From an uncultured archaeon (GTDB taxonomy: Archaea; Thermoproteota; Nitrososphaeria; Nitrososphaerales; Gagatemarchaeaceae), in the NCBI GenBank assembly GCA_963817525.1, contig CAWFOU010000007.1, forward strand, positions 1,056,001 through 1,120,000: a stretch of 64,000 bases of DNA. Reading direction: 5' to 3'. The notes beneath the pieces were generated by a model. That model had not been told where the DNA came from. It was given only the letters and a program-made list of their open reading frames with translations, and ran no database searches. Shown here in pieces: positions 14,833 through 40,567 of the stretch; position 1 is the stretch's first letter; each line of letters opens with the position of its first letter. A program made the translations under genes and the position numbers.

Positions 14833-14856
14833 GCAGGGTCCGGATAGCGCTCCAAC

Positions 14857-16475
14857 TTGGCAGTAGCTAGGCTAGTCAGGGTGAGGCTGGAAGCGCCCAG
14901 GGGCGATGTGGGGGTGCTCCTCGCGGAGCTCATAAAATTCGCGGAGTTCCACCCCTCGAGGAGCCAGGGGATGGTGCAGGACATCGGCATACTCCTCCTG
15001 GCCTCGGAGGCCCAGGACATCTACACCAAGGCCGGCGACCTGCTCAGCAGCAAGAGCGGGGTGAGGACCGCGGAGGGCAAGAAGAAGGAGGTGGAGAGGT
15101 TCGAAGCCCACGACATCGAAGGCCTGCTAAAAGTGCTGGAGGAATACCTCGGCACGATCGAGGGGAACCTGTCGCTCTTCAAGGAAGAGAAGGACAAGCT
15201 CGGGGTCACCGAGGTACTCCTCGCCATCCAAGAGGCCTCGCTGATGGTGTTCACCGACCTGCAGAGGATATTCGTCTACCCCCTCGACGGAGGGAGGCTG
15301 AGGCTCGAGGGGTTCGTCCCCGCGCACTCTCTCGGGTCGTTCAGAAACTCCCTGGGCAGCTACCTGGTCTCCGAGGAGCCGGTCAAGACGCAGGGCAAGG
15401 AGGTGGCCTACGTCCCGACCCTCCTCGTGAACCCTCGGCTCGTCTCGGTGTTCGAGAGCATAACCCTCATGCGAGGCCTCCCTCGATACGGGGAGGTCGA
15501 CCCAACGCCCATCCTCGCGTTCGTCTTCCCCTTCTTCTTCGGAATAATGTTCGCCGACGTGGGCCACGGGATTGCCCTCCTCGCCCTCGGCCTGTACCTG
15601 GTCTACCGGACCGCCTACAAGTCTTGGGGGAAGCAGATCATCGTCTTGAGCTTCTCCACGGCCCTTTTCGGCTTCATCAGGGGGTCGTTCTTCGGCGTCG
15701 TGTTCACCTCGCCCCTGGAAGAGTTTCGTCAAGCTCCCGCAAGGCCATCACCGCGGGTTTCACTCTCTCCTCGATCCCGTTCCTCTTGGAGGTCGCGATA
15801 GCGATAGGCACCTTCCACCTCGCGAGCGCGTACGCCATCGCCTTCGTCAACCAGGAGAGGGCCGGAAACTACCTGGACGCCTTCCTCGACAGGCTGCCTA
15901 CCGTCGTGCTGTACTGCTTCCTCGTGCCGCTCGGCCTCGCCGCGGCCGGGACCATCCTCGACCTCGGCGCCCTCTTCACGAGCAGCGCGCCCACGCCCCT
16001 CTTCAACGACCTTCTCGGGCTGGACATCCCGGTCTCCGCGACCGCGCGCCTCTGCGTCCCTGTCGTCTTGGGCGCGCTGCTAGTGCTCGTCGCGGGGGAG
16101 CCCATTCGCGAATACCTGCCCACCCGGAAGTGGAGGAGCGCGGTCAGGGGGCTGGGCGCGGGACTTCTGCAAGGGGTGGCGAAGCCCTTCGAGTTCTTCG
16201 TGAACACCCTGAGCTATGTCAGGCTCGGAGTCCTGCTGATCACGACCACGCTGCTGGGGAGCCTGGTCGCGGGCGTCCTGTCGTACGGCGTCGTCGGCAT
16301 AGTCCTGGCGGTCTTCCTCAACATAGCCGTGATGAGCCTGGAGGGCCTGATCGTCTACCTGCAAGACATGAGGCTGCAGCTCTACGAGTGGCTCTCGCAG
16401 TTCTACGCAGGGACGGGTACGCCGTTCACGCCCCTCGTCTCCGGCGGAAGCCACTTCAGCGCAAGCTGGACTTGA
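14857..16475 (+). CDS. A/V-type ATPase subunit I (a)-like protein, copy A, with two +1 indels near 15720-15742
   Basis: PRYGEVDPTP, FFGIMFADVGHG, NTLSYVRL, QDMRLQLYEW..FY.G.G; ORFs 14857-15801 and 15624-16475 join; the intact copy is at 23078-24691. Confidence 0.85.
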
Positions 16476-20724: not shown

Positions 20725-21780
20725 GTGGGGCGAGCCACTGACTCGGCGGCAGGGTTCTCGGGCGGGGAGAAGGCAAGGATCGCCCTGCTATACGGCGCCA
20801 TAATCGTCGTCACGGCGTTCGGGTTTCTGGCCTCCTTCGCCATCGGGCGCGTCGCCATCGTGCTGGCCGGGCTCGGGCTCATCTCCTACGTCCTGGGCCT
20901 CCGGCACGCGGTCGACGCCGACCACATAGCGGCCATCGACAACACCACCCGGAAGCTGCTGCAGGAGAAGAAGCGGCCCCTCGCGGTCGGAACATGGTTC
21001 TCACTCGGCCACTCCACCATAGTCGTCGGGCTCATCGTCGCCTTCGTGCTCGCCGCGCGCGCCTTCAGCTCGAGCGTCCCCACCCTCCAGGCCGACGGCA
21101 ACATAATCGGGACCCTGATATCCGGAGGCTTCCTCTGGATCATAGGCCTAGTAAACGTCGTCATAGTGGTCGGGGTCTACCAGGTCTTCAGGAAGATGAG
21201 GGAAGGGAAGCTCGACCAGAGCGAGCTCGACGACCTCATGGAAAGACGGGGCTTCATGAACCGCTACTTCCACAGGTTCTTCAAGATAGTGAACGAGCCC
21301 TGGCAGATCTACCCGATAGGGGTGCTGTTCGGCCTCGGCTTCGACACCGCCACGGAGGTGGCGCTGATTGCGATAAGCGTGGGCGTCGGGGTCTCGGCCA
21401 ACGTGCCGCTGTATTACGTGCTCGTGCTGCCGCTGATGTTCACCTGCGGGATGGTCCTAGTGGACACGACGGACGGGGTCGCCATGAGGATGGCCTACGG
21501 CTGGGCTTTCCTCAATCCCCTCAGGAAGGTCTACTACAACCTCACGGTGACGATAATATCGATAATGGTGGCTTGGGCCATCGGGTCGATAGAGCTCCTC
21601 CAAGTCCTCTCTTCGGAGCTCAATCTCTCCGGAGGGTTCTGGTTGTGGGTGGACGCCCTTAACTTCGAGACCATCGGCTACGGCATCGTGGGGCTCTTCG
21701 TCGTCTCGTGGATGGCTTCGATGGCTTATTGGCGGCTCGGCAGGTTCGAGCAGAAGTATTCTGGCGTCATTGCGGGCTAG
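20725..21780 (+). CDS. hoxN: High-affinity Ni/Co permease (HoxN/HupN/NixA, NiCoT)
   Basis: Signature RHAVDADHI, FSLGHST, GLGFDTATE. Confidence 0.93.
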   Translation: MGRATDSAAGFSGGEKARIALLYGAIIVVTAFGFLASFAIGRVAIVLAGLGLISYVLGLRHAVDADHIAAIDNTTRKLLQEKKRPLAVGTWFSLGHSTIVVGLIVAFVLAARAFSSSVPTLQADGNIIGTLISGGFLWIIGLVNVVIVVGVYQVFRKMREGKLDQSELDDLMERRGFMNRYFHRFFKIVNEPWQIYPIGVLFGLGFDTATEVALIAISVGVGVSANVPLYYVLVLPLMFTCGMVLVDTTDGVAMRMAYGWAFLNPLRKVYYNLTVTIISIMVAWAIGSIELLQVLSSELNLSGGFWLWVDALNFETIGYGIVGLFVVSWMASMAYWRLGRFEQKYSGVIAG

Positions 21781-23077: not shown

Positions 23078-24691
23078 TCAAGTCCACTTGGCGCTGAAGT
23101 GGGCGCCGCCGGAGATGAGGGGCATGAACGGCGTCCCTGTCCCGGCGTAGAACTGTGGAAGCCACTCGTATAGCTGCAGCCTCATGTCCTGCAGGTAGAC
23201 GATCAGGCCCTCCAGGCTCATCACGGCGACGTTGAGGAAGACCGCCAGGATTATGCCGACGACGCCATACGACATCACGCCCGCGACGAGGCTCCCCAGG
23301 AGGGTCGTCGTTATCAACAGGACCCCGAGCCTGACGTAGCTGAGGGTGTTGGTGAAGAACTCGAACGGCTTCGCCACCCCTCCGAGGAGGCCCGCGCCGA
23401 GCCCCCTGACGGCGCTCTTCCACTTGCGGGTCGACAGGTAGTCGCGTATCGGCTCCCCCACGATGAGGACGGCCAGCGCGACCAGGACGACCGGAAGGGA
23501 GACGCGCGCGGTCTCGTAGACGGGGATGTCAATCCCGAGGAGGCCGTTGAAAAGGGGCGTAGGCGCGCTGCTGGTAAAGAGCACGCCAAAGTCGAGGGCC
23601 GTCCCGGCCACGGCGAGCCCCAGGGGCACCAGGAACACGTAGAGCACCACCGTGGGCAGCCTGTCCAGGAGTGCATCCAGATAGTTTCCGGCCCTCTCCT
23701 GGTTGATGAAGCCTATGGCGTAGGCGCTCGCGAGGTGGAAGGCGCCTATGGCTATCGCGACCTCGAGCAGGAACGGGATGGAAGAGAGGGTGAATGCCGC
23801 CGTGATCTCTTGGGGGAGCTTGACGACGCTCTCCAGGGGCGAGGTGAACACCACCCCGAAGATCAACCCCCTGACGAAGCCGAAGAGGGCCGCCGAGAAG
23901 CTCAGGACGAGGAGCTGCTTGCCCCACGACTTGTAGGCCGTCCGATAGATGAGGTACAGGCCCACCGCGAGGAGCGCGATCCCGTGCCCCACGTCGGCGA
24001 ACATTATGCCGAAGAAGAACGGGAAGACGAACGCGAGGATGGGGGTGGGGTCGACCTCCCCATACCGGGGGAGGCCCCGCATGAGGGTTATGCTCTCGAA
24101 GACGGAGACCAGCCGGGGGTTCACCAGGAGCGTCGGGATGTACGCCACCTCTTTGCCCTGCGTCTTGACGGGCTCGGCCGAGACAACGTAGCTGCCCAGG
24201 GATGCCCTGAACGACTCGAGTGAGTGCGCGGGGAGGAACCCCTCGAACGCCAGCCTCCCTCCATCGAGAGGGTACACGAAGATCCTCTGCAGGTCAGTGA
24301 ACACCATCAGCGACGCCTCCGGGATTGCCAGCAGGACCTCGGTGACCCCCAGCTTGTCCTTCTCCTGCTTGAAGAGCGACAGGTTCCTCTCTATGGTGCC
24401 GAGGTAGTCCTGCAGCCCTTTGAGCAGCCCTTCGATGTCGTGGGCCTCGAACCTCTCCACCTCCTTCTTCTTGCCCTCTGCGGCCCTCACTCCCCCCTTG
24501 CTCAGCAGGTCGCCGGCCCTGGTGTAGATGTCCTGCGCCTCCGACGCAAGCAGGAGTATCCCTATGTCCTGCACCATTCCCTTGCTCCTCGAGGGATGGA
24601 ACTCGGTGAACTTGATGAGCTTCGCGAGCATCACGCCGACCTCCGTCCTGGGCGCTTCCAGCCTCGCCCTGACGAGTCTAGCTACTGCCAA
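23078..24691 (-). CDS. A/V-type ATPase subunit I (a)-like protein, copy B, intact, 537 aa
   Basis: Same motifs as copy A; essential Arg kept in SYVRL; short soluble N-terminal domain. Confidence 0.88.
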   Translation of the reverse strand: MAVARLVRARLEAPRTEVGVMLAKLIKFTEFHPSRSKGMVQDIGILLLASEAQDIYTRAGDLLSKGGVRAAEGKKKEVERFEAHDIEGLLKGLQDYLGTIERNLSLFKQEKDKLGVTEVLLAIPEASLMVFTDLQRIFVYPLDGGRLAFEGFLPAHSLESFRASLGSYVVSAEPVKTQGKEVAYIPTLLVNPRLVSVFESITLMRGLPRYGEVDPTPILAFVFPFFFGIMFADVGHGIALLAVGLYLIYRTAYKSWGKQLLVLSFSAALFGFVRGLIFGVVFTSPLESVVKLPQEITAAFTLSSIPFLLEVAIAIGAFHLASAYAIGFINQERAGNYLDALLDRLPTVVLYVFLVPLGLAVAGTALDFGVLFTSSAPTPLFNGLLGIDIPVYETARVSLPVVLVALAVLIVGEPIRDYLSTRKWKSAVRGLGAGLLGGVAKPFEFFTNTLSYVRLGVLLITTTLLGSLVAGVMSYGVVGIILAVFLNVAVMSLEGLIVYLQDMRLQLYEWLPQFYAGTGTPFMPLISGGAHFSAKWT

Positions 24692-24710
24692 GTTGGAGCG
24701 CTATCCGGAC

Positions 24711-25160
24711 TCAGCGTATCACAAGGACCGCGCAGGCCGCGTACTCGACGAGGCCGGCCGCCACGCTCCCCACGAGCATCCTCCTCGAGGGGGTCGTCCC
24801 CCGGGTCCCCGTCACAATTAGGTCGGCCTTCACCGTCTCCGCGTAGCCGAGTATCGCGTCGACGACGGAGTAGGCGCCCACGACGACCTCGGTCTTCACC
24901 CCGATCCCGCTCCTCGTCGCTATCTCCTCGACGTCCTTCATCCACTTCTTCGCGTCCCTCCTCGCGCTCGCGTAGATCTCTGCAAGGTCGCCCTTCACCT
25001 CGAACGGAGGGACGGGCACGACGTGGAGCGCGACCAGCTCCGCCCCGTCCTGCCTTGCGATGCGCGCCGCGTGCTCGGCCGCCCGAAGAGAGACCTCCGA
25101 CCCGTCCACGGCCACGATTAGTCTGGTGAAGCCTCTCTTGGTCGACGAGGACGATGACAT
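24711..25160 (-). CDS. Universal stress protein (copy B)
   Basis: About 9 of 149 aa differ from copy A (counted by eye). Confidence 0.92.
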   Translation of the reverse strand: MSSSSSTKRGFTRLIVAVDGSEVSLRAAEHAARIARQDGAELVALHVVPVPPFEVKGDLAEIYASARRDAKKWMKDVEEIATRSGIGVKTEVVVGAYSVVDAILGYAETVKADLIVTGTRGTTPSRRMLVGSVAAGLVEYAACAVLVIR

Positions 25161-25274: not shown

Positions 25275-26434
25275 GAGGCATGGGCATAATTCTATCGTTG
25301 ATTGACGCGTTAGCAAAATCTGATTGAGATAGGATGCTAAGGGTCTCCGTCCCGGGAGACCTGTTGGCACAATGAATCCCGGTAGGAGACTTCCTAGCAC
25401 GATGCTACTCTCTGAGTCGTTCCTTATTGGGATTCTACGTCTAATCGGTTTGATTCCTTGGCCAACACATTCCAAGAGACGTGCTGGGAGGCCATACATC
25501 TACCCGCCTCTCGTGATGCTCAGATGCTTCATCGTGAGGGTATGGATGAGGATACCGAGCAACAACGCGCTCCACTCGTTCTTCCTCCTCTCCACAGAGA
25601 ACCCGTACAACGCGAGGATCATGATGGCGTGTGGTCTCGATAGGATTCCAGACAGGAGGACGTTCGACAGGAGGCTCAAGAACATCTCAGCCGATGGGAG
25701 CGACGAGGACCTCAGGCCGCGGATAGATGCGATGGGTCGCCTGTTCGTCGCAGAGGAGTTGATCGACCCATACATCGCGTCAGTGGACAGCACGCTCCTC
25801 AAGGCCAAGGGCCACGTATGGCACAGGAGCAGCATGGAGAAGGGTTTCGTTTACTCCGGGACAGACACGGACGCGCGGTGGGGCAAGAGCAGGACAAAGG
25901 GATGGGTCTTCGGATACAAGCTTCACATCGTGAGCAGCACGGGCTCGCTCATCGTTCCTATCTCAGCCGATTTCACCACAGCCAATATCCCTGACAGCAA
26001 GGTCTACGGGAGGGTGACCGCGTCCCTGCGCGGCGTCAGGTATGTGGATGGCGACCAGGGCTACGACGTCGACGACCTCTACGAGCTGAGCAGGGAGAGA
26101 GGGTTCGACCTCGTCTGTCCCATAGCGAGGTATGAGAACACGCATCCAGATAGGGTCGAGCTCGTGTTCTTCTACGAGTCTGAGCTCGGGCAGCTGGTAT
26201 ACTCGTGGAGGAGCAAATCGGTAGAGCCTCTCTTCGAGCAAATCAAAGATGTCTTCGGGATCGACCCTCTCCCGGTGAGAGGATTCGACAAGACGAAGAT
26301 GTCTGTCCTTCTATCGGTTCTGCTGTATCAGACGATGGTATACTACAATCATCTGACAGGGAGATCGCTGAGGGCGCTCAAACACATGCTCGGGAGTTGA
26401 GAGACCCTACACGGGACAATTATGCCCATGCCTC
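25275..26434 (+). mobile_element. Complete insertion sequence (DDE, IS5/IS982/IS4-like), 1,160 bp
   Basis: TIRs GAGGCATGGGCATAATT (25275-25291) and AATTATGCCCATGCCTC (26418-26434); TSD AATCAATT at 25267-25274 and 26435-26442; single transposase ORF. Confidence 0.93.
25372..26400 (+). CDS. DDE transposase (DDE_Tnp_1-like)
   Basis: GRP, SVDST, D.DARWG...GWVFGYKLH, GDQGYD, R.KSVEPLF..IK. Confidence 0.9.
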   Translation: MNPGRRLPSTMLLSESFLIGILRLIGLIPWPTHSKRRAGRPYIYPPLVMLRCFIVRVWMRIPSNNALHSFFLLSTENPYNARIMMACGLDRIPDRRTFDRRLKNISADGSDEDLRPRIDAMGRLFVAEELIDPYIASVDSTLLKAKGHVWHRSSMEKGFVYSGTDTDARWGKSRTKGWVFGYKLHIVSSTGSLIVPISADFTTANIPDSKVYGRVTASLRGVRYVDGDQGYDVDDLYELSRERGFDLVCPIARYENTHPDRVELVFFYESELGQLVYSWRSKSVEPLFEQIKDVFGIDPLPVRGFDKTKMSVLLSVLLYQTMVYYNHLTGRSLRALKHMLGS

Positions 26435-26574
26435 AATCAATTAAGGGACTTCTCAGAGTTGAGAATCACCAGCGCGCATAAATAGGAAGGCCGACTCAAT
26501 TGACCTTGGGAAGCCTTCAATCCTGAGAGCCCGCGAAAGAAGGTCTCTGTGCGCAGAGCGAGTGGACGACAGCG

Positions 26575-27741
26575 ATGCAAGTAACTAGGCGCGACTTTCT
26601 AAAGCTGGCAGGGGTCCTCGGCGCGGGCTTTGTCATAACAGCATATTCTCCAGGCATAAAGAAGGTCTTCGCCCAGGTGCAGTCCCAGAACGTGCACCTC
26701 ATTTGGATTCACCTCGGGTCCGACTCTGGTTGCTCGATATCGATGCTCCAGGCCTACAACCCTGACCTCATATCCTCCGTGGTCGATCTGGGACTTCAAG
26801 TGGACTTTTGGCAGGTTCTGATGACTCCCGACTACCAGATTGGGGACCTGGGGTGGATCACCGCCGGATACACGACGGAGGACACTTCGGAGCTCCCGAT
26901 CATCAACGCCGCGTTCGGGAGCGCACCGGTGGACGTGCTCGTCGTCGAGGGTACGCCGCAAGTCGCCACTCCGCCCGGCGGCGTGGCCGGAGGCTACTGC
27001 ACGGTCGGGCAGTACAACGGCCAGGACGTCACGGGGTACGAGCTGCTCCAGAAGCTCGCGGCCAAGGCCAGCTATGTGGTCGCGGTGGGCCAGTGCTCCT
27101 CATTCGGCGGCATCCCCGCGGGCAAGGGGAACCTCACGGGCGGCACCTCCGTGGTCAACGCCTTGAAGATGGCAGGGGTGAGCACGGCCAACCCTGTGAT
27201 CAACATGCCCGGATGTCCCGCCAATCCCGACTGGACCCTCGTCACGCTGGCGTCGGTCATCCAGGGCTTCAAACCCGACCTCGACAGCCTGGGACGCCCC
27301 ACCGCGTTCTACAGCGAGACCATCCACGACCATTGTCCGCGGAGGGGAGCCTACGACAAGGGCGACTTTGCGACGGTCTTCGACGACCCTTACGGCTGCC
27401 TATGGAAGCTGGGGTGCAAGGGGCCCATTACGTACGGGGCCTGCTCGCTGACCCACTGGAACTCGGGGACGGGGACGTGCACCCTCGCCGGCCCGATGTG
27501 CTGGGGGTGCATGAACGAGAGCTTTCCCGACCCGCCGACTAGCCCGTTCTTCGACGAGATCGAGCTCACGCCAGCCTTCTTCGGGGTCAACGTCAACGAC
27601 ATAGCGATAGGCGCCGCGGCGGCCACGGCCGGGGTCATAGCGGTCCACGCGGTAGCGCGGGAGCTGCGGGGGGACCGCAAGAAGGAGGACGCGGGCGCCC
27701 CGGCGGGCCACCAGGGGCAGAGCGAGGGCGGTGGCAGTTGA
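26575..27741 (+). CDS. Group 1 [NiFe]-hydrogenase small subunit, Tat-exported, with C-terminal membrane anchor
   Basis: TRRDFLK; VVEG; VGQCSSFGG; PGCP; IHDHCPR; GCLWKLGCKGP; C..WN...C..AG..C.GC; C-terminal TM with His. Confidence 0.92.
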   Translation: MQVTRRDFLKLAGVLGAGFVITAYSPGIKKVFAQVQSQNVHLIWIHLGSDSGCSISMLQAYNPDLISSVVDLGLQVDFWQVLMTPDYQIGDLGWITAGYTTEDTSELPIINAAFGSAPVDVLVVEGTPQVATPPGGVAGGYCTVGQYNGQDVTGYELLQKLAAKASYVVAVGQCSSFGGIPAGKGNLTGGTSVVNALKMAGVSTANPVINMPGCPANPDWTLVTLASVIQGFKPDLDSLGRPTAFYSETIHDHCPRRGAYDKGDFATVFDDPYGCLWKLGCKGPITYGACSLTHWNSGTGTCTLAGPMCWGCMNESFPDPPTSPFFDEIELTPAFFGVNVNDIAIGAAAATAGVIAVHAVARELRGDRKKEDAGAPAGHQGQSEGGGS

Positions 27742-29329
27742 CCAGGATAGTCGTCGACCCCGTCGCTAGGATAGAGGGGCACATGAAGGTGGAGGTCGAG
27801 GTGGACGACACAACCAACCTCGTGACCTCGGGCAAGTGCAGCGCCGTCCTCTACAGGGGTTTCGAGAACATAGTCCTGGGGAGGGACCCGAGGGACGCGG
27901 CTCCGATACTCTCAGCGATATGCGGGGTCTGCCACAGCGACCACCACATAAACTCCGTCAGGGCGGTCGAGAACGCGGCCGGGATGCTCTCCTACCCGAG
28001 CAGCTACAGCACGGAGCAGACGAGCATCCCAAAGAACGCCGTCCTGAGCAGGAACGTGATACTGGGAGCGGACTGGGCGTATTCGCACGCAGCGCACCTT
28101 CTGGTCCTCGCGGGGCCTGACTATGCGCTCTACAACCTCCTCCAGGTCCTGAGCCAGTCCGTGGTAATCACCGACTATGCGAGCCTCCTAAAATGGGCCG
28201 TGATACCCGCGCAGGCGTACATGCATCAGCTCATCACCCTCTGGGGCGGGAAGACCCCCACCAGAGGGGGTCGATCCCGGGAGGGAACCCGGTCAGGCCT
28301 ACGGCCGACGTCATCGAGCAGTCGAAGAACAAGGTCTCGAACCTCAGGACCATCACCGACGTCGTCGCCCCCGTGATCTGGAACTTCCTCACCGCGGACG
28401 CCATCCAGCTCTCCCAGCTCGGGCCAGGCCCCGGAAACTTCATCTCGCTCGGGGCCTTCCCCGACCCGACCACCTCCTCAGGAACGTCGAGCATGCCTTT
28501 GACCCTCCCGAGGGGAGTCCTGGTCTATCCGAGCACGACGCCCATCCCATTCGACCCGACCCAGATCACCGAGACCGTCCCCTACTCTTGGTACAACCAG
28601 CCGCTCTCCGTCCCCGTGATCGGAGAGCAGCCGCCCGTCCCCGACCAGACGAACCCGAACGCCTACTCGTGGGCCAAGTCGCCGCGATACGCAGGCAACC
28701 CGACCGAGAGCGGCCCGCTCGCGCGCGAATACGTCTCCGGCATATACCCGAAGCTGGGGCAGATAGTGAACAGCATAGTCCCCTCAGTGCCGGGGTTTCC
28801 CCTCAACCCCAAGGGGTCGGTCTTCGACAGGCTCGTGACGAGGGCGATAGAGCTGGTGGCTCTCGTGGGCTCGAACAACACGACGAAGAACCTCATGGCG
28901 CTAGGACAGCCGCTCAACCTCTCCCTCGTGGACGTCCTGACCGCCCTCGGCCTGCCGACGAACGGCCTCATCGAGACCTGGCTGGACGGGATGGACGTCG
29001 GTGAACCGGCCTACACTCCCTACACCGAACCCACGTCGGGCCAGGGGATGGGGCTCTGGGAGGCTCCACGCGGATCTTTGTTCCACTGGCTGAGCATAGA
29101 CTCTAGCAAAGTGAGCGACTACCAGGTCGTGGCGCCCACGACGTGGAACGTCTCCCCCAACGGCCCTCTCGAGGGCGCGCTGGTGGGGACCCCGGTCGGG
29201 ACAACGGGGACCAACCAGGACCTGAGGCAGACCGCGTGGGTGGTGAGGTCGTTCGACCTGTGCCTTGCGTGCACCGTCCACACCATCGACGCACGCGGGA
29301 ACGAGCGCTACGTCAAGATCAGGCCGTGA
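27738..29329 (+). CDS. [NiFe]-hydrogenase large subunit (one missing C in the C-run at 28255-28259)
   Basis: DPVARIEGH, RGFE, L1 AICGVC, GGKTPH after frame repair, YSWAKSPRY, EAPRG, APTTWN, L2 RSFDLCLACTVH plus a cleavable tail. Confidence 0.9.
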
Positions 29330-29339
29330 TCGTGCGCCC

Positions 29340-30092
29340 ATGCCCGAGAAGACCGTAAGGACGATGCGGCACGACCTTGCGGTGAGGCTCGTCCATTGGG
29401 CGATAGTCGTCGAGGGCGCCTTCCTGCTCCTGAGCGGGGCCCAGCTCAACGGCCTCCTCCCGTTCATCACGTGGGATCTCTACTCGTACCACATCATCGT
29501 GGGGTTCGCGTTCATAGGGACCGCGGTCATATTCTTCTACGTCGTCCTCGCCGAGCACGACTACCACTGGTTCGGGCTGCGACGGATCCCGTACTCGATC
29601 CGCTTCATTCTCGCGGAGGCTGGGTACTGGTTCAGGCTCAGGCCGAAGGTAGACGAGGCCAAGATAAAGTTCGACGCGCAGAAGGGCCAATACGTAGAGA
29701 AGCTCATACCGAGCGTCATCGTGGTCTGGTGGCTCTACATTGCGATGGGTGTCATCCTCACGCTGACCGGCCTCGCGGACGCCTTCCCGAAGACCTTCGC
29801 CTGGGAATACACGCTCTTGAACCCCATAGGCCTTGCGCTCACCGGGGTCGACGGCCTGCCGTGGATACTCGCGGTGCACAGGCTGGTCGCCGTGCTGCTG
29901 GTCTGCACCGTGGCGCTGCACCTCTACGCGTCGATCTTGTACAGGCTCGTCGGCTCCATCTTCATAGGATACAGGAACGAGCCAGTCGCGGAGAGTGAAA
30001 AGCCCCCTGCAGGACCTCCGCTCGTCGCGGCCTTTCACGCCCCCAAGGAACCCCTGGCCAAGACCCCAGACGACGAAGGACGTCACGCCTGA
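29340..30092 (+). CDS. Hydrogenase b-type cytochrome subunit
   Basis: Four TM segments with His in RLVHW, YSYHI, LAVHR and ALHLY; follows the large subunit. Confidence 0.85.
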   Translation: MPEKTVRTMRHDLAVRLVHWAIVVEGAFLLLSGAQLNGLLPFITWDLYSYHIIVGFAFIGTAVIFFYVVLAEHDYHWFGLRRIPYSIRFILAEAGYWFRLRPKVDEAKIKFDAQKGQYVEKLIPSVIVVWWLYIAMGVILTLTGLADAFPKTFAWEYTLLNPIGLALTGVDGLPWILAVHRLVAVLLVCTVALHLYASILYRLVGSIFIGYRNEPVAESEKPPAGPPLVAAFHAPKEPLAKTPDDEGRHA

Positions 30093-30121
30093 CGACGCAT
30101 GACCGCGGATCTACGAGGCGG

Positions 30122-30619
30122 GTGGGAGAGTTGCAAAGGGGGGTCGTGATAATAGGTCTCGGCAACGTGTTCCTGCACGACGACGCGGTAGGCGTCAGGG
30201 TCGCCGAGGCGCTGACTGATGTGGCGCCGAACCTGAAAGCCTCCCAAAGCGTCCATGTCGAGAAATACGAGGAGATGGACCTGTCCATCCTGCAGGAGAT
30301 GAAGGACGCGTCCAGGCTGATAATCATAGACTCGATCAAGTCGGGAACGGACCCGGGAACTGTCTCGTTATTCCAACTCGGAGAAAGGCCAGGCGAACTG
30401 GAGAGCATCCCCAGCCTCCACGAGCTCGACCTCTCCGACATGGTGTACCTGGCACAAACGCTCGGGATGCTGCACTGTCCGGTCCTCATAGTGGGAGTCG
30501 AGCCGGAAGACCTCAGCATCGGGGAGGGGCTCTCGGCAAGGGTTGAAGCGGCAATACCTCGCGCCGTGACGGCCGTCCTCTCGAGCCTGGGCGAACAAGG
30601 AGGCAGATGCGGAGAATGA
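30122..30619 (+). CDS. Hydrogenase maturation endopeptidase (HyaD/HybD family)
   Basis: IGLGN..L.DDAVG, IIIDS, SLHE, GVEP...GEGLS. Confidence 0.9.
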   Translation: MGELQRGVVIIGLGNVFLHDDAVGVRVAEALTDVAPNLKASQSVHVEKYEEMDLSILQEMKDASRLIIIDSIKSGTDPGTVSLFQLGERPGELESIPSLHELDLSDMVYLAQTLGMLHCPVLIVGVEPEDLSIGEGLSARVEAAIPRAVTAVLSSLGEQGGRCGE

Positions 30620-30635
30620 GGAGGGCGCGACGGCG

Positions 30636-31490
30636 ATGAGCAATAGCGAGGACGGCCCGGTCATCGCGTCTGCCGCTGAATCGGCGGACTCCGTCGCGTC
30701 AGGCCCTAGGCTGACCGTTCTCTTGGTCAACCAGTCCTCGTCGATGGACTCGCCGTTCGGGGCGTACGGGATATCGATGTCCGAGGGCATCGCGGACGCG
30801 CTGAACCTCTACCTCCAGAGGATCGCGGAAAGAAGGAAGGGCGCAGGCGCTAGCGAGTTCGAGAGCGGGAACTTCGGGGTCTCCATCATCGGCTACGGCT
30901 TCGAGGCGGGCGCGGCTGACAAGATCTTCTCCATGGAGTCGGACAGCGTCTGGGCGGACGAGAGGCGCACGCACTCAGACAAGTCGACCCCGAGCTCAGA
31001 CGACACCCTGTCTAGCTTCTCGACTTGGGTAGACCCCGCCGCGGGGTCGGCCGACGCCCCTCTCTGCAAGGCGCTCTCCACGGCTTCGTCCGTCATAGAG
31101 CCCTGGGTCTCGAAGCACAGGCTGGCCCCTCCCCCGAGGGTGGTCAACATCACCGACGGCGGGATGACCGACGGCGACCCTTCCGAGCCCGCCGAACGGC
31201 TTTGCAGCCTTTCGACCTTGAATGGCGCGACCTCCCTATGGACCTGTCACGTCTGCGGGGACCCGGAGCCGGGAACCCTGCTCTTCCCCAACAACGCGGC
31301 GCTGCTCGCGCCGGAGCTCTCGCCCCTCTTCGCGTCGACGAGCTTCCTGCCCCACGACGGCCTCTCGAACCTTCTGATGGAGTTCCCCGAGGTCTCGAAG
31401 ATATCGGGAGCCAAGGCTTCTGTCTTTTACGCGGACCTCCGGACCCTGGTGAGGTTCCTGGCGTTCGTCACCAGGGTCCCGATGCCCTGA
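30636..31490 (+). CDS. vWA-domain protein (TerY-like) with altered MIDAS
   Basis: LLVNQSSSM, IIGYG, PLCKAL, PP.VVNITDG..TDGDP. Confidence 0.65.
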   Translation: MSNSEDGPVIASAAESADSVASGPRLTVLLVNQSSSMDSPFGAYGISMSEGIADALNLYLQRIAERRKGAGASEFESGNFGVSIIGYGFEAGAADKIFSMESDSVWADERRTHSDKSTPSSDDTLSSFSTWVDPAAGSADAPLCKALSTASSVIEPWVSKHRLAPPPRVVNITDGGMTDGDPSEPAERLCSLSTLNGATSLWTCHVCGDPEPGTLLFPNNAALLAPELSPLFASTSFLPHDGLSNLLMEFPEVSKISGAKASVFYADLRTLVRFLAFVTRVPMP

Positions 31491-31999: not shown

Positions 32000-33635
32000 T
32001 CAATTGACGCCGTAGCGCCTGACCTTCTCCAGGTCCAGTCCGCGCTTCCTGCACATCGTCTCGATGATGTGTAGCAGCCCCCAACCGCCGAGGTTGAGGG
32101 TGAAGGGCATCGCGGCGCGGCGGAGGGGGTTGCCATGGCTGTCCCTCAGCGAGTCCCTCCTGATCATCTTCGAGAGGTGCCGGTAGCAGGCGTAGTAGAC
32201 CGCGAGCTGGGACTCGTCCAGCATCTCCGGGGTGAAGGCCCGGCTCTTGATCCGCCCGAGCGGCACGTTCTGCATCGGCGTGACGGTGAACTCCGATGGC
32301 ATCGTCCCCACTTGCATGTCGCTGAGCCTGTTCACCATGGCCACGGTCTCCCAGTTGTCCTCGGGCATCTCCGCCATCTGCCCCACCTGGACCGTGAAAG
32401 CGGGGCGCCAGTAGGCACGGTTCATCGCCCTCACCCCTGCCGCGACTATCTCCTGCCAGGAGCCGTCCGGGCCTATCTTGAGCGGCAGCGTCTTGTTCGG
32501 CATGTGGATCTGCGCCAGCCTCTCGCTGCCCGTCTCGAGGCCGACCTGGACGCCTATCCACTTGTCCGGGCCCGCCCCGACCACCGAAGATATCATCTTG
32601 ACGAGGTCGGGATACCCGGCCGGGACGGAGATCCTCCCGTAGGTCGGGTTCGCGTAGGCTATCCCCTTGACCGACATCACGGCGCGGAAGAGGTCTCCTA
32701 TCGCCTCGGGGTTCGGGGTGTAGTGGGGGCCGTGATGATAGGCGAAGATCTCGTCGGTGTGGAGCCAGGCGCTCTTCCTCCCCGCCCTGGCGTTGACCTC
32801 CACCTCCTTCTGGACCATCTCGGGCGTGTAGTACCTGATCGGCCTGAGGGTGACCTCGCAAAAGTCGCAGCCGATGCCGCAGCCGCGCATGATCTCGCTC
32901 AGGGCCTTCACCGTGGGCCCCCTGATGAGAGGGATGTCCTCCAGGGTCGGGAACTGCTTGCCCGAGTGCGTCCGGGTCACGAAGCGGTCGTGCCTCACCC
33001 AGCTCTTCCGGAATGTGGAGTCGAAGGACTGGAAGCCCTGGAAATAGCCCTTCTCGTATATCGTCTCGTTGGCGATGTCTTCGAGGACCTCGTTGATTAT
33101 GTCGTCGGCCTCGCCCTGGAATGCCAGGTCGATGCCGAGCTCGTCCATCACCTCCGGCATCACCGTGAGCTCCCAGACGCCCGGCCCTCCCACCACGACC
33201 TTGGCCTTCTTCCCTCGCCGAGCCCTGTCGAGCCTCCTCATCAGCCTCTCGAACTCCACCCTGGCCCACGCCTTCGACTGGTCCCCGAATAGCACGGAGA
33301 AGGACATCGACAGAGGCCCTAGGCTCAACGGGTCCATGGTGTAGACGCCGACTATCTCTGTGTCGTCCTTGATGAAGGAGCTCGCGAAGTCCTCGTGGGC
33401 GATGACGACGTCCTCTTTCGGGTGGCGCGCCAGGAGCGCGGACTCTAGCTTCCTGAGGGCGTAGGGCGCGAGGACCGCCCTCCCGTTGTCGTCGGGCGTC
33501 CGGCCTCCCTTCAGGAACCTGTAAAGGAACTCGGGCACTATCCCGCTCGGAGCGCACGGCAGAAAGTCGAGCAGGGGGGAAGTTGTTGTACTCGCGCGAG
33601 AGGCTTGGGTCTGAGACGAAGACGTACTTTGCCAT
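32000..33635 (-). CDS. B12-binding radical SAM protein of the Grs/Gms (GDGT lipid-modifying)-like clade; one +1 indel near 33575
   Basis: N-terminus MAKYVFVSD..SREYNNFP joins LLDFLPCAP...GRAVLAPYALRKLE; MDPL.LGP; VVGGPG.WE; EIMRGCGIGCDFC; GLETGS.RL. Confidence 0.75.
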
Positions 33636-33695
33636 CTAACGCCCCTCCTCACACCGCTTCCGAGCTGTGAGGGGGGTCTCCATGCCATGTGCGCC

Positions 33696-36869: not shown

Positions 36870-37667
36870 CTATTTTGTCAGCGAGGACGCGAGCCGGTCG
36901 AGCGCGACGGAGATTCCATTCCCCCGCGCCCGGAGCAGGCTGACCAATCCCTCGGAGCTCACCGTCGGCTCCAGTGGGAGCTCGACCAACACCCTCGACC
37001 TTAGGCTGCGCTCAATGGATTCTCGGTCAGGCTTGCCGAAAGGATAGAGCACCCTCCCCTTGCTCGCCTTGAGATACGCCATGTTCAACACTATGCCTTC
37101 CACGGGCACCCGCTCGATCTCCGCGAGGCGCCGAAGCCTCGACACGACGGTCGTAGCTCCCTTCGAGGGCGTCGTGACCAGGATCAACGTTGATTTGCCT
37201 TGGAAGAGCGCGAACGCGGAGAGGAGCTCGTCGCCGGTGCTCGGGGGGAGGTCGACGACGAGGAAGTCAAGCTTCCCCCAGTTCGTCGACGCGAAGAGCT
37301 GGGTAATCAGGCTCTGTTTCTTGTCCCCCCTGAGCGGTATCGGTTTCTCGCCGGTGAACAAGGCTAGGGACATGACCTTCAGTCCCGCGACCTTCTTGGG
37401 CTCGAGCCCCCTGGCGGTGCTGCTGACCGGGGGCCTCACCCCCAGATAGCCTGGGACGCTGGCCCCGTGGATGTCGATGTCGAGCACGCCTGTCCTGTAG
37501 CCCTTCCGCTCTAGCGAGAGGGCCAGCCCGCAAGACACGAAGCTCTTGCCGACCCCGCCCTTTCCGCTCCCGACGAGGATGACCCGGCCAACGGCCTCCA
37601 TCTTCTTCCTCGAAGCTGCCCCCTCGAAATCTATCCAAGCCAACGGCTCTCTCCGCCTCCCCTTCAA
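36870..37667 (-). CDS. Mrp/MinD-family P-loop ATPase; likely ATPase-type HypB (Thermococcales-like)
   Basis: GKGGVGKS, DIDIHG, DLPPSTGDE; lacks the Mrp CxxC; overlaps the hypA stop. Confidence 0.8.
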   Translation of the reverse strand: MKGRRREPLAWIDFEGAASRKKMEAVGRVILVGSGKGGVGKSFVSCGLALSLERKGYRTGVLDIDIHGASVPGYLGVRPPVSSTARGLEPKKVAGLKVMSLALFTGEKPIPLRGDKKQSLITQLFASTNWGKLDFLVVDLPPSTGDELLSAFALFQGKSTLILVTTPSKGATTVVSRLRRLAEIERVPVEGIVLNMAYLKASKGRVLYPFGKPDRESIERSLRSRVLVELPLEPTVSSEGLVSLLRARGNGISVALDRLASSLTK

Positions 37668-38101
37668 TCTAACACGACCCTCGCGATCCGGATGTCCTCG
37701 CCCCTTGTGGCTGTCGAGTCGGAGCTCCCGCAGCCGGGGCATCTGACGAAGCTGGGATACAGATACGGGAGAAAGTGCATCGGGAGCTCGACGCTGTCGG
37801 GCTCGCGGATCCTCAGGTCGTCGGGCACTGTGAGCAGCTGTTTCCTTGTCTCGTCCATCCCCCATTCCTTTCCGCACCTTCTGCACGTGAACGAGGCCTC
37901 TGTGACGCGGACTACCACCCTCGCGTCTTCCAGCCTCGGTCCCCTCATCAGGAGCCGCAGCGCGGCCTCAAGGGCCTTCACGTCCAGCTGCATGAGCTCC
38001 CCGACCTCGATCTCGACCGAGGCCACCTTCTCTGCGTTTGCCTTGTCTGCCTCAGCGAGGAGGGAGTCGACGATGCTCTGCGCGATTCCGAGTTCGTGCA
38101 A
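37664..38101 (-). CDS. hypA: Hydrogenase nickel metallochaperone HypA (long archaeal type)
   Basis: MHE.GIA, GEL, CRRC...CPGC with an insert between the CxxC pairs. Confidence 0.92.
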   Translation of the reverse strand: MHELGIAQSIVDSLLAEADKANAEKVASVEIEVGELMQLDVKALEAALRLLMRGPRLEDARVVVRVTEASFTCRRCGKEWGMDETRKQLLTVPDDLRIREPDSVELPMHFLPYLYPSFVRCPGCGSSDSTATRGEDIRIARVVLD

Positions 38102-38168: not shown

Positions 38169-39404
38169 CTAGAGCGCGGCCTTGACGGGCGGCCCGACTG
38201 GAGGTCTGTCGACCTGGTGCGGCTCGGCCGTCTCGCCGAAGTAGGCGTCCATCAGCCAGCTCCAGCCTCCTTGGATCGTGGACCAGTATATCTTCGCGAA
38301 CTCCCTCTTCATTTCGTAGCGCATGAAGGTCGGCTTTTCGGGCCCGGGCGCGGCATCGTAGGTCCCTGAGACGAAGAGCGCCCTCCGTCGTCCCGTTTCC
38401 ATCGGGCAGTTGATCCTCCCGTTGTATTCGAAGACCTCTCCGCCCCCGTTCAGGTCAGACGCGAGGTTCTTGGCGATTGTCTCCGCCTGCAGGTGCGCCA
38501 CCACGCCTGACTTTGAGATTGCTATGCTCGTGGCGTCGCCGAGCGCGTAGGCGTCCGTGCAGTCCTTCACTCTCATGGTGCGCTTGTCGGCAGGTATCCA
38601 TCCCTCCTCGTCCCCGATTCCCGAGGCCAGGACCACGTCAGCTCCTCTATGCGGGGGCACCGCGATGAGCAGGTCGTAGTCCTGGCTCTCCCCTTCGAGG
38701 TCGTAGATCTTCTTCGCGGACGGGTCGACGTGATCGGCTGCGAAGAACGGGACTACCTCGATGCCCCTCCTCTCGAACATCGGCTGTATCACCTCGGAGA
38801 TGTGCTCGGCCGGATACGCCCGGGGGTAGGGAGTGACGAACTTGATCCCCACCGATTTCCTGTTTCCGCGCTTCCGGAAGAACTCGTCTATCATGAACGC
38901 GGCCTCGTTCGGGGACGGAGGGCACTTGTGGGGGACGCTCGTGATGGCCACCACCACCTTCCCCCTCTTGAAACGCTGGAGGGCCTCCCATATCTTTGAC
39001 GCCTCGACGCCTCCGGTGTGAAAGTTCAACGAGCCCTCGAGCAGGCCGGGCATGAGCTCGGGCCTGGCGACGGCCCCCGTGGCGAAGACGACGTAGTCGT
39101 ACGACATCGCCGTCCCTCGTCGAGTCCTAAGGACCTTCTCTTTCATGTCGACGCTGGCCGCTCCGTCGCTGACGTATTCCACGCCCTTCTTCAGGAGTGT
39201 CGTTTCGCGGCGGACGGCCACCTTGGGGTCCGCCCCTTTGAACGCGATGTCGAGGTTGGCGGGCTGGAACGCGTGCTCGTCCCCTTCACCCACGAGCTGG
39301 ACGCCGACCTTGCCGCTGCGTATCTGTGCGTGGAGGTCACGGGCGAGGAGATTGGCGAGTAAGGTGCCCCCTGACCCCGCACCGACGATTACGACCCTCT
39401 TCAA
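38169..39404 (-). CDS. Sulfide:quinone oxidoreductase-like flavoprotein (type III-like)
   Basis: GAGSGG, KCPP.P.E, IAVPPH.G, GDAT....KSG..AH, YNG...C. Confidence 0.8.
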   Translation of the reverse strand: MKRVVIVGAGSGGTLLANLLARDLHAQIRSGKVGVQLVGEGDEHAFQPANLDIAFKGADPKVAVRRETTLLKKGVEYVSDGAASVDMKEKVLRTRRGTAMSYDYVVFATGAVARPELMPGLLEGSLNFHTGGVEASKIWEALQRFKRGKVVVAITSVPHKCPPSPNEAAFMIDEFFRKRGNRKSVGIKFVTPYPRAYPAEHISEVIQPMFERRGIEVVPFFAADHVDPSAKKIYDLEGESQDYDLLIAVPPHRGADVVLASGIGDEEGWIPADKRTMRVKDCTDAYALGDATSIAISKSGVVAHLQAETIAKNLASDLNGGGEVFEYNGRINCPMETGRRRALFVSGTYDAAPGPEKPTFMRYEMKREFAKIYWSTIQGGWSWLMDAYFGETAEPHQVDRPPVGPPVKAAL

Positions 39405-39408
39405 GGAG

Positions 39409-39657
39409 CTACGCCCTCTTCTTTGTGACCCGGACGTCTATCCGTGTGTAGCCGTTCTCGTCGGCGATTTCTAGCACCTGATTCCCCGTGTGAGCCGCCC
39501 ACGCCTGTATGTCGCTCTTCGCGGCGGGGTCGGTCGCCCAGACCTCCAGGACCGACCCAAGTTCGGCAGTCCTGTACGCCCTGAAGAGGTCGGTGAGCGG
39601 CCCGGGGCAGAAGCTGCCCCTCGAGTCGATGACCTTCTTCTGGCCGGCTGCTTCCAT
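39409..39657 (-). CDS. tusA: Sulfurtransferase TusA family protein
   Basis: D.RG.FCPGP...ATDP...DI.AW. Confidence 0.9.
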   Translation of the reverse strand: MEAAGQKKVIDSRGSFCPGPLTDLFRAYRTAELGSVLEVWATDPAAKSDIQAWAAHTGNQVLEIADENGYTRIDVRVTKKRA

Positions 39658-39669
39658 CCCTGCCGCCCC

Positions 39670-40131
39670 TCAGATGAAGATCGTCTGACCGCCTTCAGCG
39701 AGGTGAAGGAAGGTCGAGGCGCCCACGATGTCGTCGACCTCTGGGATGAAGTCCTCCTTCTTGAGCCCCATCATCTCCATCGTGGTAGAGCACGCGTGGA
39801 AGTGCACCCCCATGTCGTGCGCGTTGGCGACCATCTCTGGTATCGTCGGGATCTTCAGCTGTTTTATGGCAGCCCTTACCATCGGAGTGGTCATGCCTGG
39901 ACTCGCATCCGGGCCGACCTCGAGATTGGCCTCTTGGTTCCTGTTGATCACGGCCATCCCCCAAAATGTGAAGAAGACGTGAACCTGCATTCCCATGGCT
40001 GCCCCTGCGCTTGCGAGCATGAATGCAGGATAGGCCATGTCGAGCGATCCCTTCGAGAGTATTATCGAGAGCTTGTGGACCTGCTGAGTTTCAGGCTCCG
40101 ACCTTAATGCGGTCATTTCTGCCAACTTCAA
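39670..40131 (-). CDS. DsrE/DsrF/DrsH-like (DsrE2-type) protein
   Basis: G.LDMAYPAF.LA, FFTFWG, ACSTTM.MMG, VGA.TFL. Confidence 0.88.
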   Translation of the reverse strand: MKLAEMTALRSEPETQQVHKLSIILSKGSLDMAYPAFMLASAGAAMGMQVHVFFTFWGMAVINRNQEANLEVGPDASPGMTTPMVRAAIKQLKIPTIPEMVANAHDMGVHFHACSTTMEMMGLKKEDFIPEVDDIVGASTFLHLAEGGQTIFI

Positions 40132-40216: not shown

Positions 40217-40567
40217 CTAGCCGCTTCCGTTCGCGCGGTCCACGATCGCGTTGGAGATCTGCTCTGCGGTCTTCCCCACGGTCGGGATTCCCAAGCGCTG
40301 AGCGGTCTCGATGAGCGCCGCGTTGGTCTCGGCCGCGGACGCCGCGGGAGCCGGAGCTGTCCCGACGGCGGGAGACGTGACCGATGCGAAGGTGCTCGCC
40401 AGGCTGCCCAGTCCGACTGGCTTCTGCGCCGCCCCGGCGGCGAACTCGTTCTTAGCCTGCCCCAGCGCCCGGGCGAGCTCCGGGATCTTCCTGGGCCCCC
40501 ACATTATGAACACCACAACCAGCGCCCCGACTATCAGGAGCTGCAACGGGTCGTCGAACAATGACAT
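40217..40567 (-). CDS. tatA: Twin-arginine translocase TatA/E
   Basis: Short TM followed by GP.KIPELARALG.A..EF. Confidence 0.88.
   Translation of the reverse strand: MSLFDDPLQLLIVGALVVVFIMWGPRKIPELARALGQAKNEFAAGAAQKPVGLGSLASTFASVTSPAVGTAPAPAASAAETNAALIETAQRLGIPTVGKTAEQISNAIVDRANGSG

Follow-up and report, generated by a model that had tools for sequence, protein, structure and literature searches.

To our knowledge, every characterised [NiFe] hydrogenase depends on the maturation proteins HypC, HypD, HypE and HypF to form its Fe(CN)2CO centre. The available portion of one paper describes the step that makes Fe(CN)2CO as well conserved, unlike nickel insertion. For the proximal iron–sulfur cluster, the accessible text on the group 1h enzyme of Cupriavidus necator (AH; PDB 5AA5) reports a [4Fe-4S] cluster held by three Cys and one Asp, with the Asp needed for O2 insensitivity. 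Excerpts of two further accounts state that one proximal-cluster Cys is replaced by Asp60 in FrhG (group 3a) and that the clusters of Huc (group 2a) are [3Fe-4S]. Here we analysed a 64,000-nucleotide (nt) stretch of an archaeal genome (the window; contig CAWFOU010000007.1, genome G000) by computational means throughout, with coordinates counted from the first letter of the window as position 1. A list of open reading frames and family scans identified an operon of four genes on the plus strand (26575–30619), encoding a twin-arginine (Tat) small subunit, a large subunit, a cytochrome b and a maturation endopeptidase. We propose, with a probability of roughly 0.6, that the operon encodes a functional [NiFe] hydrogenase that oxidises H2, is exported by Tat, is anchored in the membrane and belongs to a distinct soil and peat lineage, and that it would be matured without HypD, HypE and HypF (HypDEF).

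The small subunit begins with the twin-arginine signal TRRDFLK, ends in a hydrophobic anchor and scores 185.8 bits against TIGR00391 (cut-off 179.5). Its translation contains VHLIWIHLGSDSGCSISML and WNSGTGTCTLAGPMCWGC. The large subunit is split over two overlapping frames (27738–28376 and 28193–29329), whose translations carry RIEGH, ILSAICGVCHSDH, WEAPRGSLFHW and SFDLCLACTVH, followed by a 15-residue tail; its homologues are 528–531 aa long and 59–91% identical. Several features that define group 1 are present: a Tat small subunit passing the family models, a cytochrome b in the operon, two CxxC pairs, the Glu, the Arg and a cleavable tail. The four-Cys proximal cluster is absent, its first ligand being Asp in the window, and the large subunit departs from consensus at the Arg of its first Cys motif (L1) and the Pro of its second (L2), as aligned to 5jsu. 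A previous reading of this DNA from the letters alone (the sequence-only reading) had proposed a membrane-bound archaeal group-1-type [NiFe] hydrogenase of a distinct lineage. The family models and the operon cytochrome b agree with that proposal, as do the bit-score gap and the 100%-supported clade described below. On the best reading of the sequences, the enzyme would be a new variant of the group 1 uptake hydrogenase.

Alignment to solved chains with HMMER placed the Asp of GSDSGC in register with the first Cys of the proximal CxxC in NiFeSe and Desulfovibrio-type [NiFe] small subunits, and the Cys of GTGTC in register with the extra medial Cys of NiFeSe enzymes. In the large subunit (L1, SAICGVCHSDH; L2, DLCLACTVH), 5jsu has an Arg at the position of the Ala of SAICGVC and a Pro at that of the Leu of FDLCLAC. 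By direct reading, the remaining cluster ligands are present in GQCSSFGG, PGCPANP, HDHCPR, CLWKLGC, GAC and CWGC; the distal cluster of the small subunit has a His and three Cys, and the medial cluster has a fourth Cys. The Glu of RIEGH, the APRG motif, all four Ni-binding Cys and the 15-residue tail are kept.

These motifs recur throughout the enzyme family. Homologue searches gave 488 small-subunit and 254 large-subunit matches, and motifs were counted in the 120 best matches of each kind. At the first proximal position, 107 small subunits have Asp, 13 have Glu and none has Cys, and the extra medial Cys is found in 117 of 120. Among the large subunits, the L1 residue before x-C-G-x-C is Ala in 112 and Ser in two (the other six are truncated at the N terminus), the second position of L2 is Leu in 110, Met in seven, Val in one and Pro in one, with no residue in one, and APRG is present in 120 of 120. 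Two subtypes can be told apart. That of the window has HSDH, D[L/M]C and EGH, and the other has YCDH, NLC and EG[E/K], so that in the second the L2 Asp and the His after the Glu are altered too. Conservation across the family takes the motifs far beyond chance: they are lineage traits, not errors.

Outside the family, the first proximal ligand is Cys in every small subunit read. Where L1 could be read in out-of-family representatives, the Arg is missing from just two, P0270 (Met) and P0344 (Tyr). The L2 Pro is replaced by Phe, Val, Cys, Ser, Ala or Leu in several other lineages. The L2 change alone is therefore unremarkable, because it recurs elsewhere, and the loss of the L1 Arg is rare. Contigs of four public sequencing runs align over 26500–30700 at 99% identity or more, without any differing letters listed, and include the L1 region; the pieces listed span neither the proximal codons (~26716–26730) nor the L2 codons (~29275–29290).

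Most of what the sequence-only reading had said about the metal sites holds. The Asp at the first proximal Cys is confirmed by the HMMER register and by Asp or Glu in 120 of 120 homologues, the Ala and Leu of the large subunit by the alignment to 5jsu, and the retention of the EGH Glu, the APRG Arg, the four Ni-binding Cys and a cleavable tail by the translation. It had left open whether homologues share the motifs, and more than 100 do. It had also allowed that the substitutions might vanish on remapping; they persist in the public contigs that cover them, namely in the L1 region, which makes the read support partial. Two of its points need qualifying. The extra medial Cys is present, and it is the norm in the nearest solved relatives (NiFeSe) rather than non-canonical; the L2 substitution is real, and non-Pro residues recur at that position in other lineages. 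Its further suggestion of altered redox or O2 properties is a conjecture.

The family is well separated from other hydrogenases. Exhaustive searching of a set of 1.84 billion representatives, made by clustering at 50% identity, leaves the family with a single full-length representative, which scores 785 bits; the score falls to 283 bits for the next protein, whose identity is 41%. Identity to out-of-family representatives does not exceed 44%. Of the 90 rows in a FastTree phylogeny, 76 were representatives from outside the family, 8 were members of it and 6 were large subunits from genomic loci; P0330–P0389, fragments outside 440–660 aa and 9 of 17 in-family samples were left out. In this tree the family members group as one clade, which has 100% local support and a stem 0.84 substitutions per site long. 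The sister of the clade is a metagenomic protein with Arg and Pro at the two positions, and the next group holds one D-V-C protein and one with Met in place of the L1 Arg. Scores against NiFeSe models fall far below their cut-offs (NF045520, 209 versus 470; NF045518, 108 and 165 versus 780; NF033181, 121 and 206 versus 600); an intact relative reaches 326 bits against a NiFeSe cut-off of 600. L2 has Cys and no selenocysteine. Metagenome loci matched with the outgroup protein P0245 (80 loci listed, best match 50% identity) have no DUF6390 match. The L1 Arg is present in 75 of them, and the other five have no readable large-subunit motif. The earlier description of the lineage as unclassified stands on the distance to other proteins and on the tree stem; it is a judgement by distance and not by the HydDB classifier.

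The frame of the large subunit breaks in a run of five C (28255–28259). The sequence GGKTPHQRGSIPGG that homologues read across this run requires six C. A 1,188-base contig from public run X1 spans 27784–28970 without a mismatch and with exactly one extra C behind 28254, at a depth of 3.9. The indel at 28255 that the sequence-only reading had flagged is thereby repaired by adding one C, as both this contig and the homologues indicate. The large-subunit frame is unbroken in 10 of 13 loci and carries single breaks at three different places in the window, G010 and G015; these three assemblies are the ones with few contigs (15, 5 and 10). The break is most likely a homopolymer error of assembly, neither a pseudogene mutation nor programmed frameshifting, and the type of error suggests that the assembly derives from long reads. 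The maturation protease of G010 also lies in two frames (L031, 11339–11760), which fits indel errors in an assembly of few contigs.

The names attached to homologues are those of metagenome-assembled genomes of Thaumarchaeota, Nitrososphaerota or Nitrososphaerales archaea. A small-subunit search of genome contigs returned one close and one distant locus. Across 401 genomes of the class (G000 included), a high-identity small subunit (63%, besides G000 itself) is found only in archaeal family f1. The two largest families, which are probably ammonia oxidisers, gave no small-subunit match (0 of 223 and 0 of 78 genomes). Within family f1, the odd enzyme occurs in 16 of 97 genomes, spread over four genera. 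Eight further hydrogenase loci of the same class are 34–41% identical and all have RICGVC; the small subunit was read in three of them and has CTGC in each.

The host lineage is likely to be one non-ammonia-oxidising family of Nitrososphaerales, a label that rests on the likely identity of family f1; a PF12942 search for amoA gave no match, and neither did its control. The window has a G+C content of ~62%, and G000 measures 2.8 Mb at 95% completeness and 8.75% contamination. For the Gagatemarchaeaceae (group I.1c), the available text reports 54–62% G+C and genomes larger than those of other non-ammonia-oxidising lineages, and group I.1c archaea are described in part of the literature as encoding haem-copper oxidases. 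The main text of the genomic description of the Gagatemarchaeaceae, in the form available, does not contain the words 'hydrogen' or 'NiFe', and according to the accessible part of another paper, Thaumarchaeota lack hydrogenase genes of groups 1 and 2. A literature search on Gagatemarchaeaceae and hydrogenase returned no account of this enzyme; the search took in articles, with supplementary gene tables outside it. Public runs with the gene come from soil, peat, bog and rhizosphere metagenomes. Three pieces of the gene, at 99% identity or more, occur in a peat metatranscriptome, which is only a hint of expression.

The most unusual feature of these genomes, beyond anything in the sequence-only reading, is the absence of HypDEF. 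HypD has no match in G000, and HypF reaches only 18–38 bits there (cut-off 466). HypD was also not found in eight relatives carrying the enzyme. By contrast, in two same-class controls with canonical hydrogenases, HypD lies 5–9 kb from the hydrogenase, and HypE and HypF also sit beside hydrogenases. HypE rises above its cut-off in none of nine genomes, against both controls, and HypF in none of ten, again against both controls. Five further best assemblies, two of them single contigs (G484 and G485), have neither (0 of 5 for each). In total, HypE and HypF are absent from all 15 genomes of the family tested for both, namely G000 and 14 relatives. HypD is present in one of the 97 genomes of family f1 and in none that carries the odd enzyme; the large subunit of that genome (G432) has the canonical RACGVC and DPC. 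Searching the whole of G000 by tblastn with the HypD of relatives gave a best E-value of 0.28. The same search with HypE found only a PurM-superfamily paralogue at 26% identity, and the controls have such paralogues too.

This loss extends beyond the odd enzyme. Large subunits of the group-3b-like, group-3c-like (VhuA-like) and Cys-retaining group-4-like types, all with canonical L1 and L2 motifs, occur in the same HypDEF-less family (Table 1), so the loss of the Hyp proteins is a trait of the archaeal family and is not tied to the odd motifs.

Table 1 Features of the hydrogenase locus and of related loci (window coordinates unless a locus is named)
Feature	Coordinates	Strand	Basis
B12-binding radical SAM protein, TIGR04190	18767–20623	+	635.3 bits; equivalog cut-off 500
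NicO/HoxN-type high-affinity nickel transporter	20725–21780	+	PF03824, 328 bits
Hydrogenase small subunit, 388 aa	26575–27741	+	PF01058, PF14720 and Tat signal TIGR01409, all above cut-offs
Hydrogenase large subunit, ~530 aa when read through	27738–29329	+	PF00374 on both pieces
C5 homopolymer with one C missing, cause of the frame break	28255–28259	+	Homologues read GGKTPHQRGSIPGG across it
Cytochrome b membrane subunit	29340–30092	+	PF01292, 57.8 bits; ATG start at 29340 inferred
Large-subunit C-terminal maturation endopeptidase	30122–30619	+	PF01750; TIGR00072, 107 bits (cut-off 47)
Mrp/ApbC-type P-loop ATPase, start inferred	36870–37601	-	NF041136, 171.6 bits; NF008669, 110 bits; both below cut-offs
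HypA nickel metallochaperone	37664–38101	-	MHE N terminus, two CxxC pairs; NF003008, 86.6 bits (cut-off 125); TIGR00100, 61.8 bits
TatA/E component of twin-arginine export	40217–40567	-	PF02416; beside DUF6390 in G008
HypC-like protein, 79 aa	40678–40917	+	PF01455, 34.2 bits (cut-off 28.5)
DUF6390 protein	40950–41702	+	PF19927, 190 bits; true start probably near 40914
Major facilitator superfamily (MFS) transporter	41829–42980	+	PF07690; conserved next to DUF6390 in relatives
Group-4-like NuoD-type large subunit with Nuo-like membrane genes	L035 10856–17444		
Group-3b-like pair	L125 5244–7320		
Group-3c-like pair	L122 4107–6553		

Genes for handling nickel are retained around the operon. HypA-like and Mrp-type ATPase genes are present and syntenic, with both products scoring below curated cut-offs. 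HypA adjoins the protease in relatives, and the position of the ATPase beside HypA is conserved there as well. From the role of such proteins in Thermococcus, we take this ATPase to be, likely, the archaeal ATPase-type HypB. NicO stands beside the hydrogenase cluster in G001, G008, G435 and G436. In general, the accessory genes adjoin the hydrogenase in relatives, in varying order. In the window genome they are spread over ~24 kb (18.8–43 kb), compared with a compact arrangement in relatives; this spread may reflect rearrangement.

The window also has a divergent HypC-like gene next to one for a DUF6390 protein. The HypC-like protein does not pass TIGR00074 (22 bits, cut-off 48). Its M1 and C2 are invariant in an alignment of 11 sequences, and it has a Phe at the position where canonical HypC has His. 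DUF6390 occurs in 36 of the 97 genomes of family f1, and every one of the 36 also encodes a HypC-like protein, whose gene is immediately upstream in all cases with listed coordinates. A HypC-like match is found in 37 of 97, the one without DUF6390 being G432. A PF00374 match accompanies DUF6390 in 34 of 36 genomes, and in genus g20 the pair of HypC-like and DUF6390 genes lies 7–10 kb from a group-4-like large subunit.

The AlphaFold model of DUF6390 (mean predicted local distance difference test score (pLDDT) of 86.9) consists of a helical N-terminal domain and a C-terminal domain with the HypC fold. The latter superimposes on HypC (2z1c_A) with Z = 7.9 and a root-mean-square deviation of 2.1 over 71 of 71 residues at 31% identity, 1.4 Z above the next match. 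BLASTP gave no alignment between this domain and canonical HypC, and Foldseek returned no match of the full model to the PDB at E ≤ 0.001. Modelled alone from 12 sequences, the N-terminal domain reaches a pLDDT of only 50. Residues C22, H123, H124, C152 and H213 are invariant in 56 sequences, and hhalign sets C152 opposite the N-terminal Cys of the HypC-like protein in a weak alignment (E = 0.12). A literature search for DUF6390 found no paper. A second copy of DUF6390, fused to an ArsR-type helix-turn-helix, occurs at L031 6591–7343 and in P0478, P0482, P0490, P0493 and P0516, which suggests that the fold can act as the sensor domain of a regulator.

A further gene that travels with the odd enzyme encodes the B12-binding radical S-adenosylmethionine (SAM) protein TIGR04190. 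Of the 16 genomes with the odd enzyme, 15 have it, and the remaining one is 62% complete; in 12 of the 15 the gene lies no more than ~10 kb from the cluster, in arrangements that differ across three genera. Elsewhere in family f1, G007 and G437 have intact copies, the copy in G016 contains a stop, that in G021 is fragmented, and G439 has a paralogue below cut-off. The gene is missing from the 17 genus g20 genomes in which DUF6390 occurs without the odd enzyme; 16 of these have a group-4-type large subunit. A role in glycerol dialkyl glycerol tetraether (GDGT) lipid synthesis was rejected, as only 20 of the 97 genomes in the family have the gene and none of 14 control genomes has it above cut-off. 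A literature search for a link between B12-binding radical SAM proteins and the maturation of [NiFe] hydrogenases yielded just an unrelated review. The window contains a second B12-binding, radical-SAM-like protein (562 aa, 32000–33688, minus strand) with scores near or below Pfam cut-offs; it was rejected as a hydrogenase accessory, since relatives show no conserved linkage.

Other genes surround the operon. An IS5/IS1182-like DDE transposase (25372–26400) lies 175 bp upstream of the small subunit. Just after the protease, a 284-aa protein (30636–31490) has no family match; a copy with 42% identity follows cytochrome b in L001 and is absent from the other loci. Between the HypA–ATPase pair and TatA, the minus strand (38169–40131) holds a gene resembling type III sulfide:quinone reductase (SQR; NF049943, 286 bits, below cut-off) and one for a DsrE2-like sulfur carrier, which are hints of sulfur metabolism beside the hydrogenase island. 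A universal stress protein paired with a V-ATPase subunit-I-like membrane protein occurs in two copies (14383–15801 and 23078–25160; membrane proteins of 537 and 314 aa), and the same pair stands beside the hydrogenase cluster in G008 and G015. A second operon layout is seen at L029 (8854–9777), L031 (14517–15464) and L032 (7465–8448), where a His-rich polytopic membrane protein of 308–328 aa lies between the subunits. Pfam gives no match for this protein, and in that layout the large subunit is not followed by a cytochrome b gene; the protein may be a different membrane electron acceptor.

The sequences themselves show the genes, the motifs and how these are conserved, distributed and linked; from them we infer the cluster types, the catalytic direction, the behaviour towards O2 and what DUF6390 and the radical SAM enzyme do. 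The enzyme would be exported by the Tat system and anchored via the tail of the small subunit and cytochrome b. H2 would be split at a Ni–Fe site held by the four conserved Cys. Electrons would then pass from a proximal [4Fe-4S] cluster, held by three Cys and a carboxylate (Asp here, Glu in some relatives), through a medial four-Cys [4Fe-4S] cluster to a distal cluster with His and three Cys, and from there to the b-type cytochrome and the quinone pool. The changes of L1 Arg to Ala and L2 Pro to Leu are fixed traits of the lineage that fall on the clade's stem.

In maturation, NicO, HypA and the Mrp-type ATPase would deliver nickel, after which the endopeptidase would cut the tail. The iron centre would be assembled on the pair of HypC-like and DUF6390 proteins, our best candidate for an iron scaffold, without HypD, HypE or HypF. 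The TIGR04190 enzyme might modify the hydrogenase or supply a ligand and is a candidate accessory specific to the odd enzyme. Because these archaea have haem-copper oxidases and the O2 insensitivity of group 1h depends on the Asp, H2 respiration under aerobic or microaerobic conditions is a reasonable guess. We put forward a wider proposal more tentatively: the whole archaeal family may build group 1, 3 and 4 [NiFe] sites without HypDEF through the HypC-like and DUF6390 route, with TIGR04190 supplying a ligand or modification to the odd enzyme, and the iron ligands may not come from carbamoyl phosphate or may not be CN and CO. A ligand or modification from TIGR04190, if real, would explain the losses of the L1 Arg and the L2 Pro.

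Several observations weigh against our proposal of a functional hydrogenase matured without HypDEF. The large subunit is broken in the assembly, and its repair rests on the single X1 contig, which may come from the same sample. Without HypDEF, a canonical Fe(CN)2CO centre is in doubt, and the name hydrogenase itself follows from homology. The RNA contigs may be carry-over of DNA. As for the accessory genes, TIGR04190 is intact in G007, which has no hydrogenase, and is also found in other families without DUF6390, which means that its chemistry is not confined to hydrogenases. Two genomes with DUF6390 (G471 and G488) show no PF00374 match, and DUF6390 also occurs in Actinomycetota, candidate phyla radiation (CPR) bacteria and DPANN archaea. 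G438 has a group-3c-like hydrogenase with its own better-scoring HypC, so the loss of the Hyp proteins is not clean. The genomes are derived from metagenomes (48–100% complete) and related to one another, and counts of co-occurrence therefore overstate independence.

The doubt about the iron centre leads to an alternative in which the homologue is no longer a hydrogenase, its four Cys holding another centre (Ni only, or Ni–Fe without diatomic ligands) for other redox chemistry, perhaps linked to sulfur. The absence of HypD, HypE and HypF would fit this, as would the lost L1 Arg and L2 Pro, the further changes to the L2 Asp and the EGH His in one subtype, and the SQR-like and DsrE2-like genes 8–10 kb downstream. 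We nevertheless regard it as unlikely. APRG is universal among the homologues counted, and the Thr of PTTWN and the Glu of R-x-E-G are present, residues that in known hydrogenases hold the CN ligands or act in catalysis. The enzyme also retains its Tat signal, cleavable tail, complete Fe-S relay and cytochrome b, and the genome keeps HypA and the protease. Moreover, canonical group 3 and 4 large subunits occur in the same HypDEF-less genomes, so the loss of the Hyp proteins is not specific to the odd motifs. A simpler account of that loss would be that hypDEF is present in the organisms and missing from the assemblies, through binning or on a plasmid, and that the enzyme is an ordinary Hyp-dependent one with unusual motifs. 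Most of the genomes are indeed incomplete metagenome bins, and G000 itself is neither complete nor free of contamination. Yet 96 of the 97 genomes gave no HypD, among them two single-contig genomes that have a Cys-retaining group 4 large subunit and DUF6390. Where hyp genes are kept, in the controls and in G432, they lie within 10 kb of the hydrogenase, a place occupied in family f1 by HypA, the Mrp-type ATPase, the HypC-like protein and DUF6390. We give this account very little credence.

Nor do we favour a window locus that is decaying as a pseudogene, with a real frameshift. The broken large-subunit frame and the IS5-like transposase 175 bp upstream could be taken that way, but the locus has a single break that falls in a homopolymer, and an otherwise identical contig has the intact length. 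All ligands, motifs and accessory genes are intact, and breaks at other positions are confined to other assemblies of few contigs, which makes decay highly improbable. Slightly more room is left for such motifs to be already present in a known HydDB subgroup, for example 1a, 1g or 1j, to which the clade would belong, so that only its taxonomy would be new. The nearest solved relatives are in fact group 1a NiFeSe enzymes. However, the ceiling of 44% identity outside the family, the drop from 785 to 283 bits, the low scores against the NiFeSe NCBIfam models and the restriction of L1 Arg loss to P0270 and P0344 among the readable representatives outside the family all make this improbable. The literature, in its available portions, points the same way: one paper reports the absence of group 1 and 2 genes from Thaumarchaeota, and the HydDB paper makes no mention of Thaumarchaeota.

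If the proposed hydrogenase is functional, intact catalytic subunits without HypDEF would point to a second biosynthetic route or to a different chemistry of the active site, and the maturation context may be new in kind. DUF6390 would gain its first functional lead. H2 oxidation would be added to the physiology of non-ammonia-oxidising soil Thaumarchaeota, a group said to lack uptake hydrogenase genes in the accessible part of the recent paper cited above. The carboxylate ligand of the proximal cluster would be a natural variant at a position where, according to the available text on group 1h, mutagenesis removed O2 insensitivity.

Compared with known systems, the best solved matches are the NiFeSe and group 1a enzymes (2wpn, 5jsu, 1cc1 and 4kl8; E = 1.8e-46 for the small and 4.6e-62 for the large subunit). 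With them the window enzyme shares the Tat small subunit, the fourth medial Cys, the His-ligated distal cluster, the four Ni-ligand positions and APRG. Unlike them, it has Asp in the proximal cluster, Ala in L1, Leu in L2, no selenocysteine, a C-terminal anchor, a cytochrome b and no HypDEF in its genome. In maturation, the closest comparison is with HypC and the HypC–HypD scaffold of Thermococcus kodakarensis (2z1c, 3vyr and 3vyu), from which DUF6390 differs in that its Cys is internal, behind a helical domain of 150 residues, and in that the genome has no HypD partner. Group 1h enzymes are not known to have a Tat signal or a cytochrome b. The AH enzyme of that group resembles the window enzyme in having one carboxylate among its proximal ligands; its host is an aerobic soil organism, and the kinship in sequence is distant (small subunit, E = 2.7e-31). 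FrhG differs in being cytosolic and in having another C-terminal ferredoxin domain, and its family matches the window small subunit weakly (TIGR03294, E = 8.6e-4). Finally, Huc (7utd and 8dqv) comes from an aerobic soil organism and shares with the window enzyme a proximal CxxC in which one Cys is replaced; the replaced position is the second in Huc (ACSGN aligned to SDSGC) and the first in the window enzyme.

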